DNA of 64,000 bases from an uncultured Gammaproteobacteria bacterium (GCA_903837345.1 CAILUG010000020.1:19992-83991); one strand, 5' to 3'; counted from the first letter of the stretch, positions 7,124 through 48,623 are shown. Notes: generated by a model from the sequence alone, not told the origin. Numbers and translations: made by a program.

Positions 7124-8407
7124 ATGGCTGGTAAAAAGGCACACCTGACTGTCGATGGCATCGCCGAATCCATTGAATTACCGGTTTACCCGGGCACTAC
7201 CGGCCCTGATGTCATTGATGTCAGAAGTCTCACCAGCCACGACATCTTCACTTTCGACCCTGGTTTCATGTCCACGGCCTCCTGTGAATCCAAGATCACC
7301 TATATTGACGGCGACAAAGGCATTTTGCTTTACCGCGGATATCCGATAGAGCAACTGGCAGACAAGTCCGACTATCTCGAATGTTGTTACCTGCTGCTGA
7401 ACGGCGAGCTGCCGGATGCGAAGCAGAAAGCCGAATTTGTGAAAGCCATCCGCTACCACACGATGGTGCACGAACAGATCCATCATTTCTTCAACGGCTT
7501 CCCGCGTGCTGCCCATCCGATGGCGATCATGGTGGGAGTAGTCGGGGCTCTCTCGGCCTTCTATCACGACTCATTGAAGATCGAAAACGAAGACCACCGC
7601 AAAACTGCCGCGCTGCGCCTGATCGCCAAAATGCCGACCATTGCAGCAATGTGCTACAAATATTCGATCGGCCAGCCGTTCCTGTACCCGCGCAATGATC
7701 TCGATTTCAGTTCCAACTTTTTGTACATGATGTTTGGCACACCGTGCGAGACCTATGAACCAAGCCCGGTGCTGGCAGATGCGATGGACAAGATCTTCCT
7801 GTTGCATGCAGACCACGAGCAGAATGCATCAACTTCCACTGTGAGGCTGGCTGGCTCCACTGGTGCCAATCCCTACGCCTGCATTTCCTCCGGCATTACC
7901 GCACTGTGGGGTCCGGCGCACGGCGGCGCCAATGAAGCGGTATTGAAGATGCTGATCGAGATTGGCGACGAGTCGAACATCGACAAATTCATCAAACGTG
8001 CGAAAGACAAGGATGATTCGTTCCGGCTGATGGGCTTTGGGCATCGCGTCTACAAAAACTTTGATCCCCGCGCCAAAGTCATGCGGGAAACCTGCCAGAA
8101 AGTGCTGGCTGATCTCGGCAAACAAAACGATCCATTGTTGCGAATAGCAATGAAACTGGAAAAAATTGCTCTCGAGGACCAGTATTTCATCGATCGCAAT
8201 CTCTACCCGAATGTCGACTTCTATTCCGGCATCATCCTGAAAGCAATCGGGATTCCGGTAAACATGTTTACCGTGATTTTCGCCACCGGCAGAACACCAG
8301 GCTGGGTTGCCCACTGGAATGAAATGATCAGCAATCCTTTCAAGATCGGCCGGCCCCGGCAGCTGTACACAGGCCAGACCCTGCGCAACTATCCGGGTAA
8401 CAAATAA
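7124..8407 (+). CDS. gltA: Citrate synthase (type II)
   Basis: [12 protein letters not shown]...; catalytic-region motifs [14 protein letters not shown] and [14 protein letters not shown]. The ATG at 7124 is preceded by GAGGGAG. Divergent from sdhC, the classic arrangement. Confidence 0.95.
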
Positions 8408-8412
8408 AACCA

Positions 8413-8522
8413 GCGCCTGCGGCGTTCGAAGCCACTGCACAAGAACCGCGCCAATATTACGTGCGTAGCTCAAAAGCCAGTTCATAAAAAAACCCGCTGT
8501 CTGCAAAGACAGCGGGTTTTTT
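8413..8522 (+). repeat. Copy 1 of a two-copy, roughly 108-nt structured element (partner at 42856-42960); its hairpin is the gltA/tRNA bidirectional terminator
   Basis: It aligns without gaps to 42856-42960 at a constant offset of 34443 nt. 35 of the first 38 nt are identical. GCC-N-GTTCATA is conserved at 8476-8486. The loop TGCAAA matches TGCTAA in copy 2, with different but complementary stems. Confidence 0.6.
8487..8522. terminator. Bidirectional rho-independent terminator (gltA on +, tRNA operon on -)
   Basis: AAAAAA-CCCGCTGTC-tgcaaa-GACAGCGGG-TTTTTT. This is a perfect 9-bp GC-rich stem flanked by an A-run and a T-run, lying between convergent transcription units. Confidence 0.8.
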
Positions 8523-8525
8523 GTT

Positions 8526-8601
8526 TGGCGTCCCCAAGGGGTTTCGAACCCCTGTTACAACCGTGAAAGGGTCGTGTCCTAGGCCACTAGACGATGGGGA
8601 C
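8526..8601 (-). tRNA. tRNA-Glu (anticodon UUC)
   Basis: The reverse complement GTCCCCATCGTCTAGTGGCCTAGGACACGACCCTTTCACGGTTGTAACAGGGGTTCGAAACCCCTTGGGGACGCCA folds as a cloverleaf. It has a 7-bp acceptor stem, anticodon loop CTTTCAC, T-loop TTCGAAA and an encoded CCA. Confidence 0.93.
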
Positions 8602-8780: not shown

Positions 8781-8798
8781 GTTTTCACTACTATTGTT

Positions 8799-8846
8799 GC
8801 TGCTTTTGCTGCTGCTTTTGCTGCTGCTTTTGCTGATGCTTTTGTT
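8799..8846. repeat. 12-nt tandem repeat (four copies) in the tRNA operon 5' leader
   Basis: GCTGCTTTTGCT three times, then GATGCTTTTGTT; on the transcribed strand this reads AGCAAAAGCAGC. It lies between the predicted transcription start and the tRNA-Ala 5' end. Confidence 0.85.
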
Positions 8847-8884
8847 TTCCAGCGATTTTCCCGGGCTCTCCGGGAAAGGCGTGC

Positions 8885-38940: not shown

Positions 38941-42852
<3,912 letters not shown>

Positions 42853-42855
42853 AAT

Positions 42856-42960
42856 GCGCCTGCGGCGGTCGAAGCCACTGCACACGAACTGCGGCCATTA
42901 CATACAAGCAGGCTTGGTGCCCGTTCATAGACAGACGGCCGGGGTGCTAACCCCGGCCGT
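42856..42960 (+). repeat. Copy 2 of the two-copy structured element (partner at 8413-8522)
   Basis: See copy 1. The conserved 38-nt block starts 3 nt from the hrpA ATG. The perfect 10-bp hairpin ACGGCCGGGG-tgctaa-CCCCGGCCGT lies at 42935-42960. Confidence 0.6.
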
Positions 42961-42995: not shown

Positions 42996-43550
42996 CTAGA
43001 TTGGCTGCTCGCGGTGATAGGCTTCATTGTTGGGACTATGGTCGCCTGCCAGCCAGCGCTTCAGTTCGGAGTGGGCTTTGGGCAATACTTCCGCATTGAT
43101 CTTGTCGACCTGCGGAGGATCTGTGCAAAATTCTATGATCATGCCGTCAGGATCGATCACATACAGTGAATTGCAGTAGCCGTGTTCGAGGATGTAATAC
43201 TTGTCTTTCGGATAATTGGCGGCCTGCACGCGGGCAAGCAACGCCAGCTGATGGGGCTTGTCCACTTTCACTGCAATGTGGCGGAAACCGGAGAGCGGCA
43301 GTTCCGGCCCGAACTGTTTCTGGTCTTCTGCATCTGCAAACTGGAAGAATGCCAGTGCACTGCCGTCTTTCAATCCGAAGAAGCAATGGCAATAGATCCT
43401 TTCCTTGCCAAACAAATCAGTCTTTTCACACCAGGTGGCCATCAGTGGCATGCCCATCATGTCTTCGTAGAATTGACGGGTTACTTCCAGGTTTTTCACC
43501 ACGTAGGCAGTGTGGTGCAGGCGCATCGGTAATTTCTGTTGGGCGTTCAT
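42996..43550 (-). CDS. VOC-family (glyoxalase/bleomycin-resistance/extradiol-dioxygenase fold) protein
   Basis: 184 aa. LHHTAYVVKNLEVTRQFY and HIAVKVD are typical VOC beta-alpha-beta-beta-beta modules with metal-ligand His/Glu positions. Confidence 0.7.
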   Translation of the reverse strand: MNAQQKLPMRLHHTAYVVKNLEVTRQFYEDMMGMPLMATWCEKTDLFGKERIYCHCFFGLKDGSALAFFQFADAEDQKQFGPELPLSGFRHIAVKVDKPHQLALLARVQAANYPKDKYYILEHGYCNSLYVIDPDGMIIEFCTDPPQVDKINAEVLPKAHSELKRWLAGDHSPNNEAYHREQPI

Positions 43551-47042: not shown

Positions 47043-47483
47043 TTACTGCTTTTCTTTGCCGCGCTCTTCCAGCTGGCTGGAACCGGCATCAAGCGTCTGG
47101 CCCGGCTGCCCACCGGTGGCCGACAGCGTTACGCTTTTGGCATTTACCCGGGTCGTGCCATTGCGGGCCAGGAAACCGTCTACAGTGATCTTGGTACCCA
47201 GCGCCAGCGACTCACGACGCCAGCCACGACGCTGCAGCAAATGTGGCGGGCCCAGTTCGGCGCCCCAGGTGGCATTCTGGCCGGTGGCAGGATCCTTCAC
47301 ATTCAGGTAGATCCAGACATGGGGGTTGGTCCACTCGACTTTGGTAACGATGCCTTCAAGTTTGATGGTTTTGTCTGCATCAAACTCGGCAGCAAACGAG
47401 TGGTGGGCTGAAGCAGTGCCGGTCATGGACAATCCAAGAGCGGTTACCAGCAGGCCTGCGATGATTTTTGACTTCATGGACAT
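47043..47483 (-). CDS. Small secreted DUF6152-like protein
   Basis: Signal peptide ending TASA. The mature protein starts HHSFAAEFD...GIVTKVEWTNPHVWIYLNV, a pattern I recall for the uncharacterised DUF6152 family. The start is at 47483 or 47477 (GAGGAGA upstream). Confidence 0.7.
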   Translation of the reverse strand: MSMKSKIIAGLLVTALGLSMTGTASAHHSFAAEFDADKTIKLEGIVTKVEWTNPHVWIYLNVKDPATGQNATWGAELGPPHLLQRRGWRRESLALGTKITVDGFLARNGTTRVNAKSVTLSATGGQPGQTLDAGSSQLEERGKEKQ

Positions 47484-47510: not shown

Positions 47511-48623
47511 TCAGGGACGGTTGTCCTGGCAGAAATGGATCGGAACTTCCTGGTCTGGCACCCACTGCATGGTCCAGCTGGCGGTCCACGGACGGGTATA
47601 AGCTCCGCGATCGTCGATCGAAACCTGATACTGCAGTGTATTCATATCAGGCCTCGCAAAACGTTCTGTCAAAACCAGAGAGCTGGTGTGCGGCAAGCCG
47701 CCATTGCTCATCCAGAAATCTTCATTGAAGCCTTTGGTGGTGACCAGCAAGGCATCACCATCCCATTTGCCAATGGCACGGCCATAATAAAGCGGATTGT
47801 CATCATCCCCGGTGACACTGCCGACTTTCTCCCTGCCATCCATGTAGATGATGCGGTAATTGTGATTGCCGCTGCCCATCAGGATGAACACGCGTTGATT
47901 GACCTTGTCCTCGACAAATTTGATCCCCAGATCCGACTGGTACTCGCGCGGTCCGCCTGGGGGTTTGCAGTGCAGGAACATCGGGTCATCACGCAAATCC
48001 CGTTGCTGGCGTTTTTTGTACAAGGCCAGCGCCCATGGTTGCAGTGGTGCAACTTTGGCGGCATCGGCCAGATCAGCCAATTGCCCGTATTTATCCATTT
48101 TTACTTTCACGCCATCTTCGACCAGTGCGTAGCTGCTGGGGAAACCCCAATAACCGGCAGCACTGCCGAACATCACCTTGCCATCGGCGCCGCGTGGAGC
48201 CGGTTCTTTTTTGGCAGGAACGGCAGGATGCAGATCCTTGAGCGCGAACAGAGTGGTACTGCCTTTGGAAACCGATTCGGACCAGAGCTGACGCGAACCA
48301 TCGCGGGCCCTGATGCCTTTGACAGTAAGTGTGTCGCCGGGTTTGACACTGGTACTGCTCCAGCCGCTGCCTTTAAGCAGCAACGGGCTTTCCAGTTCAA
48401 CCGCCCAATTGGCCACGGCTGTCCCGGTTTTCACATTCAGGAAAACATGTACATGCGGATTTTTCCAATCGACATTGGTAACGACGCCGGTGATCGACAT
48501 TTCAGTGGCCTTGTCGAATTTGGCCTGGACAGGATGGTGCGCCAGCGCCGGAGCGCTCGACCAACCAAGCACAGCACTGGTAATGGCTGCGGCTAAAAGG
48601 GATTTCAATCTTGGATTCTGCAT
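47511..48623 (-). CDS. Secreted fusion protein: DUF6152-like N-terminal domain plus domain X
   Basis: The start is set at the ATG at 48623 (AGGTG 5 nt upstream). The signal peptide ends PALA. The mature N-terminus HHPVQAKFD...VVTNVDWKNPHVHVFLNV parallels the 47043 product, and the C-terminal two-thirds parallels the 46202 product. Confidence 0.7.
   Translation of the reverse strand: MQNPRLKSLLAAAITSAVLGWSSAPALAHHPVQAKFDKATEMSITGVVTNVDWKNPHVHVFLNVKTGTAVANWAVELESPLLLKGSGWSSTSVKPGDTLTVKGIRARDGSRQLWSESVSKGSTTLFALKDLHPAVPAKKEPAPRGADGKVMFGSAAGYWGFPSSYALVEDGVKVKMDKYGQLADLADAAKVAPLQPWALALYKKRQQRDLRDDPMFLHCKPPGGPREYQSDLGIKFVEDKVNQRVFILMGSGNHNYRIIYMDGREKVGSVTGDDDNPLYYGRAIGKWDGDALLVTTKGFNEDFWMSNGGLPHTSSLVLTERFARPDMNTLQYQVSIDDRGAYTRPWTASWTMQWVPDQEVPIHFCQDNRP

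Follow-up and report, generated by a model that had tools for sequence, protein, structure and literature searches.

In a 64,000-nt stretch of DNA from an uncultured gammaproteobacterium (GCA_903837345.1, CAILUG010000020.1:19992-83991; hereafter, the window), a noncoding unit of about 75 nt occurs twice, once behind the citrate synthase gene gltA (copy 1) and once directly upstream of hrpA, which encodes a DEAH-box RNA helicase (copy 2). Judging by the source names of its closest HrpA and GltA homologs, the genome belongs to a lake-derived member of the Pseudomonadales close to the Pseudohongiellaceae. On balance, we lean toward reading the unit, or module, as a promoter and leader on the minus strand that make up the upstream regulatory spacer of hrpA, with copy 1 a low-copy, lineage-restricted dispersed copy of that spacer. 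Comparison with orthologous loci, which we retrieved through neighboring proteins and designate here by L numbers, establishes the homology of the two copies, the boundaries of the unit, its synteny, its lineage-specific presence, and the independence of the hairpins that flank it.

The two copies share a 38-nt block (8413 to 8450 and 42856 to 42893) that is identical at 35 of 38 positions without a gap, both on the plus strand and offset by 34443 nt. Behind the block follow about 25 nt of near-random identity, then the GCC-N-GTTCATA match GCCNGTTCATA at equal offset (8476 to 8486 and 42919 to 42929; 10 of 11 positions identical), and finally, again at equal offset, the hairpin loops TGCAAA (8502 to 8507) and TGCTAA (42945 to 42950). 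The stems that close these loops, CCCGCTGTC/GACAGCGGG in copy 1 and ACGGCCGGGG/CCCCGGCCGT in copy 2, are unrelated in sequence. Across the upstream part of the unit, including the motif TATGAACNGGC, 18 of 37 alignment columns are identical between the copies. These measurements reproduce what an initial annotation of the window had described, including the ungapped block, the constant offset, the diverged 25 nt, and the loops. Its claim that the repeat did not arise by chance also held, as a degenerate 38-mer with up to three mismatches matched two sites in the 64-kb window and was found in 0 of 100 dinucleotide-preserving shuffles. Repeat finding on the window recovered the same 8413/42856 pair. 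Copy 2 is base-for-base identical across four independent assemblies (L013 to L016) and copy 1 is identical across two (L027 and L028); therefore, neither copy is a chimera or an assembly artifact. The repeat is genuine and nonrandom. It is shorter, however, than the element of about 108 nt first proposed: the repeated unit consists of TATGAACNGGC, 25 nt, and the 38-nt block, and the hairpins, which are resident at their loci, are not part of it.

Copy 2 occupies the entire spacer between the terminator of a glyoxalase-family gene and the start codon of hrpA. The features of this locus are as follows.

38941 to 42852, minus strand: hrpA (DEAH-box RNA helicase), directly downstream of copy 2; Pfam DUF3418, Helicase_C, OB_NTP_bind, and HA2; homologs are named HrpA
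42856 to 42893, minus strand: 38-nt block of copy 2, putative hrpA 5' leader; its last base is 3 nt short of the hrpA ATG (42852)
42894 to 42918, minus strand: 25-nt spacer of copy 2 with the -10-like TGTAAT (plus coordinates 42897 to 42902), from the alignment
42919 to 42929, minus strand: motif of copy 2, TATGAACGGGC on the minus strand, from the alignment
42935 to 42960, minus strand: resident intrinsic terminator of the glyoxalase-family gene, outside the repeated unit and kept in six orthologous loci
42996 to 43550, minus strand: glyoxalase-family gene

Gene callers start hrpA at the ATG at 42852, which gives a product of 1303 amino acids (aa). With the space from terminator to ATG filled by copy 2, hrpA must be transcribed either from within that spacer or by read-through. 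The order glyoxalase gene, terminator, module, and hrpA is kept in L017, L018, and L020, each of which has a homologous module, and nhmmer places the homologous block at the same position relative to hrpA in these three loci with E values of 3e-21, 4e-5, and 1e-18, respectively. Ahead of hrpA, L017 (HrpA 86% identical) and L020 (73%) have a clear module, and L018 (85%) and L031 (72%) have a degenerate one, the last case being more doubtful. The module is absent from L019 (74%) and L032 (68%), where hrpA directly follows another gene. The hrpA position of the module is old yet dispensable, and its other positions are sporadic. For copy 2, these comparative data favor the second of two options offered by the initial annotation, a terminator-plus-leader cassette read on the minus strand.

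The architecture of the module points in the same direction. Read on the minus strand, it runs from the terminator T-run through (T)ATGAACNGG(C) and the 25-nt variable spacer to the 38-nt block, which has the consensus CGC-N-GTTC-N-TGTGCAGTGGCTTCGA-N-CGCCGCAGGCGC. We aligned seven copies (alignment A3), including the window pair, the hrpA orthologs, and two copies from other contexts (L001 and L004, described below). A hexamer in a single column, 6 nt before the block, reads TAATAT in copy 1, TGTAAT in copy 2, TACAAT in L004, AGCAAT in L017, and ATAAAT in L020, and a GC-rich stretch follows it. The distance from the block to an ATG is 0 to 3 nt in the window (hrpA), L017, L018, and L004. An upstream motif, a fixed 25-nt spacer of free sequence that ends in a -10-like TAnAAT, a GC-rich stretch, and a conserved segment reaching to the ATG would together have the look of a promoter with its leader. 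Copy 2 is thus a candidate for the hrpA promoter and short 5' leader, and the module would act on the minus strand.

We also compared the module with other binding sites by eye. A sigma-54 promoter was rejected because the GG-N10-GC spacing is off by one, and an extracytoplasmic function (ECF)/sigma-E promoter because there is no consistent -10; sigma-32, LexA, CRP, Fur, marbox, and parS motifs did not fit. Scanning for TATGAACNGGC with at most one mismatch gave 11 matches against 3.6 expected, and the sole other exact match lies inside an esterase coding sequence. We attribute the excess to codon usage, a probable cause, and draw no conclusion about TATGAACNGGC as a regulon motif.

Copy 1 begins 5 nt past the gltA stop codon, and its surroundings contain the following features.

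7124 to 8407, plus strand: gltA (citrate synthase), Pfam PF00285; called as 427 aa in L027 and L028
8413 to 8450, minus strand: 38-nt block of copy 1, minus-strand reading CGCGGTTCTTGTGCAGTGGCTTCGAACGCCGCAGGCGC, 35/38 to 42856 to 42893
8451 to 8475, minus strand: 25-nt variable spacer of copy 1 with the -10-like TAATAT (plus coordinates 8454 to 8459), 6 nt upstream of the block, from the alignment
8476 to 8486, minus strand: motif of copy 1, TATGAACTGGC on the minus strand, right behind the terminator T-run and conserved in L004, L017, and L020
8487 to 8522, both strands: resident bidirectional intrinsic terminator consisting of an A-run, a stem (8493 to 8501/8508 to 8516), and a T-run; it folds on both strands and is called terminator-like
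8526 to 8601, minus strand: tRNA-Glu(UUC), upstream of copy 1 on the minus strand (ARAGORN, Rfam)

Past copy 1, the A-run, hairpin, and T-run are followed by tRNA-Glu, tRNA-Ala, and gltX, all three on the minus strand. The hairpin terminates gltA on the plus strand and the tRNA-Ala/tRNA-Glu transcript on the minus strand, which agrees with the earlier placement of copy 1 in the gltA 3' untranslated region (UTR) beside a bidirectional terminator. The gltA/tRNA-Glu spacers of L021 (GltA 93% identical) and of L022 to L025 (90%) contain no copy 1. In L021, gltA has a separate terminator, GCCCC-TGCAAAA-GGGGC followed by T7, and L022 to L025 are similar. Judged against these spacers, copy 1 is specific to this lineage and took the place of gltA's own terminator, so that the gltA site is a replacement and not a clean insertion. 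Copy 1 would be a secondary dispersed copy that arose in this lineage, ousted the gltA terminator, and came to abut the older tRNA-Glu terminator.

Given the equal offset of the two hairpin loops, the initial annotation had regarded conserved segments plus a covarying helix at fixed spacing as the signature of a structured RNA. That interpretation fails because the hairpins were inherited separately, each at its own locus. The copy-1 stem CCCGCTGTC/GACAGCGGG is identical in L021, whose spacer has no repeat; therefore, the copy-1 hairpin is older than the element. The copy-2 hairpin is present in six orthologous loci at hrpA, where pairing holds in 100% of cells and two pairs change in a compensatory way (C-G to U-A and G-C to A-U). 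In L017 and L020, this hairpin has a clear U-tract and scores as a terminator, both on the hrpA strand. The corresponding U-tract of the window is weak (CUGUCUAU), and on the plus strand no U-tract adjoins the hairpin in the window or in any ortholog. As in known intrinsic terminators, both hairpins (8493 to 8516 and 42935 to 42960) are GC-rich stem-loops with A/T-run flanks and a U-tract, and each stands at an orthologous position behind genes, namely gltA and tRNA-Glu in one case and the glyoxalase-family gene in the other, with the copy-2 hairpin 35 nt past the stop codon of the latter. On this comparative evidence, the two hairpins are unrelated resident terminators that adjoin the repeat and are not homologous to each other. 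Their offset is equal because the module directly follows the terminator T-run at both loci, the sums being 6 nt plus a 9-bp stem at one locus and 5 nt plus a 10-bp stem at the other. The pair is a cautionary case, as unrelated terminators abutting a repeat can imitate a perfectly covarying helix.

Several side observations concern the region around copy 1. The loop of the tRNA-Glu/gltA terminator is TGCAAA in the window (8502 to 8507) and its reverse complement, TTTGCA, in L021 (approximately 7395 to 7400), with an identical stem; the hairpin has flipped in one lineage, adjoining the site of element insertion. A 15-mer, AAGCCNCTGCANAAG, is common to the copy-1 block (8429 to 8443) and the 5' arm and loop of the L021 gltA terminator (7343 to 7357). 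It lies 22 nt from the gltA stop in the window and 20 nt in L021, between unrelated flanks, and by a rough estimate about 1% of comparisons between these two spacers would give such a match by chance. The sharing may be a coincidence, or it may reflect recombination microhomology that aided the replacement. Farther on, a tandem array with a 12-nt unit, CTGCTTTTGCTG, in about five copies occupies 8788 to 8847 between tRNA-Ala and gltX, likely in the promoter region of the tRNA transcript, and two independent assemblies (L029 and L030) break near it.

Beyond the hrpA orthologs, the module is rare. Scanning 185,579 species genomes with the block core gave one match, L001, a gammaproteobacterial metagenome-assembled genome from Lake Loclat. 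The same scan of 241 million metagenome records gave 11 matches, of which two are genuine, L004 and L006 (the same locus as L001); the other nine are chance matches in coding DNA. Plasmids and viral contigs gave one chance match each, and phages none. An nhmmer profile run on the window and approximately 200 kb of related loci found no copies beyond the known ones. The L004 copy follows a carotenoid-oxygenase terminator, with an ATG just past the block, and L033, the closest ortholog located through the oxygenase (90% identical to that of L004), has no element; as far as this comparison reaches, the L004 copy is lineage-specific. In L001, the copy lies between tRNA-Met and a convergent lysR-family gene, and its spacer became, or was replaced by, a terminator hairpin. 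The module forms a low-copy, sporadic family with two further copies at unrelated metagenomic loci.

Two further observations concern these metagenomic sequences. In L004, positions 640 to 1300 contain frame-shifted genes, the carotenoid oxygenase is split between two frames, and of a TonB-dependent-receptor-like C terminus no more than the last ~20 residues are present; the quality of the sequence or of the assembly is doubtful in this part, and the gene that follows the L004 copy could not be named. L006 (approximately 1520 to 1540) matches L001 (5608 to 5684) up to the last 13 nt of tRNA-Met and then continues into very AT-rich DNA, a junction that looks like an island or prophage integrated at tRNA-Met in one strain.

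A number of findings weigh against the reading of the module as a dispersed hrpA promoter and leader. The loss or degeneration of the module upstream of hrpA in L019, L031, and L032 means that it is dispensable there. A sigma-70 consensus scan calls no promoter in any copy; the match to a -35 element is poor, and position 2 of the -10-like hexamer is not A in copy 2 and L017. The L001 copy has a terminator hairpin as its spacer, which leaves no space for a -10. On the minus strand, neither copy 1 nor the L001 copy is followed by a gene, and they face the 3' ends of convergent genes, gltA and the lysR-family gene, respectively. The pattern of identities is also not that of a simple duplication. 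The block is identical at 33 to 35 of 39 columns within the tight group formed by the window copies, L004, and L001, compared with 25 to 29 of 39 among hrpA orthologs, and the upstream half of copy 1 is nearer to L004 (27/37) than to copy 2 (18/37). Given these mosaic identities, copy 1 is no simple recent copy of copy 2; either the donor was another family member, or short-tract conversion or selection keeps the block uniform.

Among known systems, the putative mobile promoters of Matus-Garcia, Nijveen and van Passel (2012) offer the closest framework for a dispersed hrpA spacer. They have been cataloged in prokaryotes and were defined on positions -150 to -50; as quoted in a commentary (PMC3575422), the stretches upstream of nonparalogous genes had to share 80% identity or more across 50 nt or more. 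The module resembles them in that a highly similar noncoding region from in front of a gene recurs at unrelated loci while the neighboring coding sequence is not duplicated, in not being associated with a known insertion sequence (IS), and in occurring mostly as a pair per genome. It differs in that copy 1 is upstream of no gene, the module reaches the start codon, and the promoter here is predicted. Identity is 92% over the 38 nt of the block and approximately 70% over 75 to 76 nt (35/39 in the block, 18/37 in the upstream half, and ~70% over 76 columns), which is below the identity set for that class. If the module is a dispersed hrpA spacer, it adds another regulatory spacer reused at unrelated loci without a recognizable mobile element, one for which filled and empty sites are available for two insertions. 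Such reuse has been cataloged already, and its mechanism is poorly understood.

Alternatively, copy 1 could be a functionless relic of illegitimate recombination or gene conversion, with the identity of the block due to recent short-tract conversion. We consider this unlikely, although it fares best among the alternatives. It would account for the lack of a minus-strand gene served by copy 1, for the dispensability of the element at hrpA in some relatives, and for the mosaic of identities, a pattern often left by conversion tracts; polymorphism is uninformative because the assemblies from this population do not differ. What it explains poorly is the combination of two conserved segments at exact spacing around a randomized spacer in copy 1, copy 2, and L004, which needs either selection or two conversion tracts, and the near-identity of the block in L001 and L004, which come from other assemblies.

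Slightly less likely, and second among the alternatives, is a small nonautonomous mobile or recombining element that lands beside terminator T-runs and carries promoter or leader activity as a passenger. The module does occur in four unrelated contexts (hrpA, gltA/tRNA-Glu, carotenoid oxygenase, and tRNA-Met/lysR), begins 5 to 7 nt from a terminator stem in three of them, and is lineage-specific at two loci, and the inverted loop of the tRNA-Glu terminator relative to L021 hints at template switching or recombination at the hairpin. Like REP/REPIN, ERIC, and Correia elements, it is short, intergenic, situated beside terminators in unrelated contexts, and restricted to a lineage. Unlike them, it has no palindromic or terminal-inverted-repeat architecture, no target duplication, and no visible link to a RAYT or transposase, and it occurs in very few copies. 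Neither terminal inverted repeats nor a target-site duplication nor a transposase was seen at the copies, and the gltA site is a replacement and not a clean insertion. Its numbers also speak against mobility: two copies per 64 kb and none beyond orthologous ones in approximately 200 kb of related loci, one exact match among 185,579 genomes, two genuine metagenome loci, and no genuine plasmid, phage, or viral match. For the same reasons, we rejected the specific class of miniature inverted-repeat transposable elements (MITE) or REP elements, as the ends of the unit, GCGCCTGCGG and GCCAGTTCAT, are not inverted repeats, there is no target duplication, and the window holds two copies per 64 kb.

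A third alternative, which we judge improbable from the sequences at hand, is a trans-antisense pair in which the gltA 3' UTR (copy 1), or a small RNA (sRNA) from its 3' end, represses hrpA by pairing with its leader, so that copy 2 would be the target. Because the repeat is direct and gltA (plus) and hrpA (minus) are transcribed in opposite directions, the gltA 3' UTR holds the reverse complement of the hrpA leader, and the complementarity between the copy-1 block and the hrpA 5' leader extends to position -4. The predicted duplex reaches -74.7 kcal/mol, compared with a mean of -36.5 and a best value of -48.9 for 200 shuffled leaders. It includes perfect runs of 12 and 16 bp that end 3 nt before the AUG, and the net gain after unfolding both RNAs is -45 kcal/mol. 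Since the gltA terminator was replaced, gltA transcripts must cross copy 1 to reach the A-run/hairpin/U-run terminator. In addition, the block is kept at 35/38 in this genome while the rest of the module is at random level, as expected under selection for pairing, and the L001 block is likewise in a plus-strand 3' UTR. There are precedents in sRNAs derived from the 3' ends of tricarboxylic acid (TCA) cycle mRNAs, such as SdhX/RybD (PMC6393394; reviewed in PMC9438474). As in those systems, copy 1 sits behind the stop codon of a TCA-cycle gene and ahead of a strong, U-tailed intrinsic terminator, and it is extensively complementary to the translation-initiation region of another mRNA.

There are also differences from these sRNAs. 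Known sRNAs use short seeds, whereas the complementarity here extends over 38 nt; the element is not conserved in gltA orthologs (L021 to L025), so the circuit would be very young at most; and copy 2, which runs antisense to the start of hrpA, has no place at any 3' end. Pairing with a leader that begins at the block leaves the conserved TATGAACNGGC (TATGAAC motif) in copy 1 unexplained, and short-tract gene conversion could equally give the identity pattern. If the antisense pair were nevertheless real, HrpA expression would be tied to citrate synthase mRNA levels, with a block of hrpA translation or cleavage as possible outcomes. It would also represent a regulator-target pair caught at birth, with a target leader copied into an oppositely transcribed context, and could serve as a model for the origins of sRNA-target pairs.

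The weakest alternative, a plus-strand structured sRNA family of about 108 nt in which the 5' block and the loop are conserved and the terminator helix covaries, is highly improbable: copy 1 alone does resemble a 3' UTR with a good terminator (fold z-score of -3.8, driven by the terminator), but the hairpins are nonhomologous resident terminators, the copy-2 hairpin has no plus-strand U-tract in the window or any ortholog, and copy 2 has no plus-strand promoter or upstream plus-strand gene and is not at any plus-strand 3' end, which does not fit the 3'-UTR-derived sRNA family suggested initially.

Searches for RNA structure gave the same picture. An Rfam search of both loci at gathering thresholds, as had been proposed for this element, returned only two tRNAs, and at E<=10 it added only subthreshold matches, which at copy 1 mostly span the terminator hairpin. 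For the seven aligned copies, RNAalifold gave -7.7 kcal/mol on the minus strand and -3.6 kcal/mol on the plus strand with positive, that is, unfavorable, covariation terms, and no supported consensus RNA structure was found on either strand. One small feature within the block is the following.

8419 to 8435 (copy 2, 42862 to 42878), minus strand: small hairpin, GUGGC-UUCGAAC-GCCGC on the minus strand; RNAalifold pairs 63-79 to 67-75

This block hairpin has 5 bp and a 7-nt loop, UUCGA(A/C)C; the pattern UUCRANN fits seven of seven copies, and loop positions 6 and 7 vary freely. It has a G-U pair on the minus strand, corresponding to a C.A mismatch on the plus strand. There is no compensatory change, the hairpin is broken in L018 and L020, and as a predicted structure it is unproven. 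A tRNA or tRNA fragment was rejected, given that ARAGORN was negative and that RF00005, even at E<=10, does not match the block. The block hairpin closes with C-G, unlike the G-C of tRNAs, and the adjacent tRNA-Glu has a 3' end unrelated in sequence to the repeat and is not overlapped by it.

Island attachment (att) sites were likewise rejected. Relatives without copy 1 share the gene order of the 34-kb interval that separates the copies, which is syntenic core genome; the genes there include gltX, arfB, cysG, serS, crcB, rarA, lolA, and ftsK and continue to dus, a response regulator, and hrpA.

We also examined coding explanations for the block. On the plus strand, a frame reads RRSKPLH through the block in copy 1, copy 2, and L004. 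In copy 1, the RLRRSKPLH frame (8405 to 8450) is in frame with the gltA stop TAA and is therefore a read-through frame, and the copy-2 frame begins at an ATG at 42853 to 42855. A small plus-strand protein was rejected because L004 has a 1-nt indel in the block, L001 differs, and other substitutions are radical; furthermore, copy 1 has no start codon and the open reading frames (ORFs) run through terminators. We judged the shared RLRRSKPLH frame to be coincidental. Neither did a minus-strand extension of hrpA from a GTG at 42885 hold, as the callers and orthologs use the ATG at 42852 and the L020 block is in another frame. With the L004 indel, the radical substitutions, and the different frame in L020, the original description of the repeat as noncoding stands. 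A 225-aa ORF on the minus strand (7829 to 8506), antisense to the 3' half of gltA and running through copy 1, has no Pfam match and is probably an artifact of codon bias. Elsewhere in the window, a 59-nt direct repeat with 76% identity (47296 to 47354 and 48430 to 48488, 1134 nt apart) is probably paralogous coding sequence, in a region that holds tandem DUF6152-family genes in relatives.

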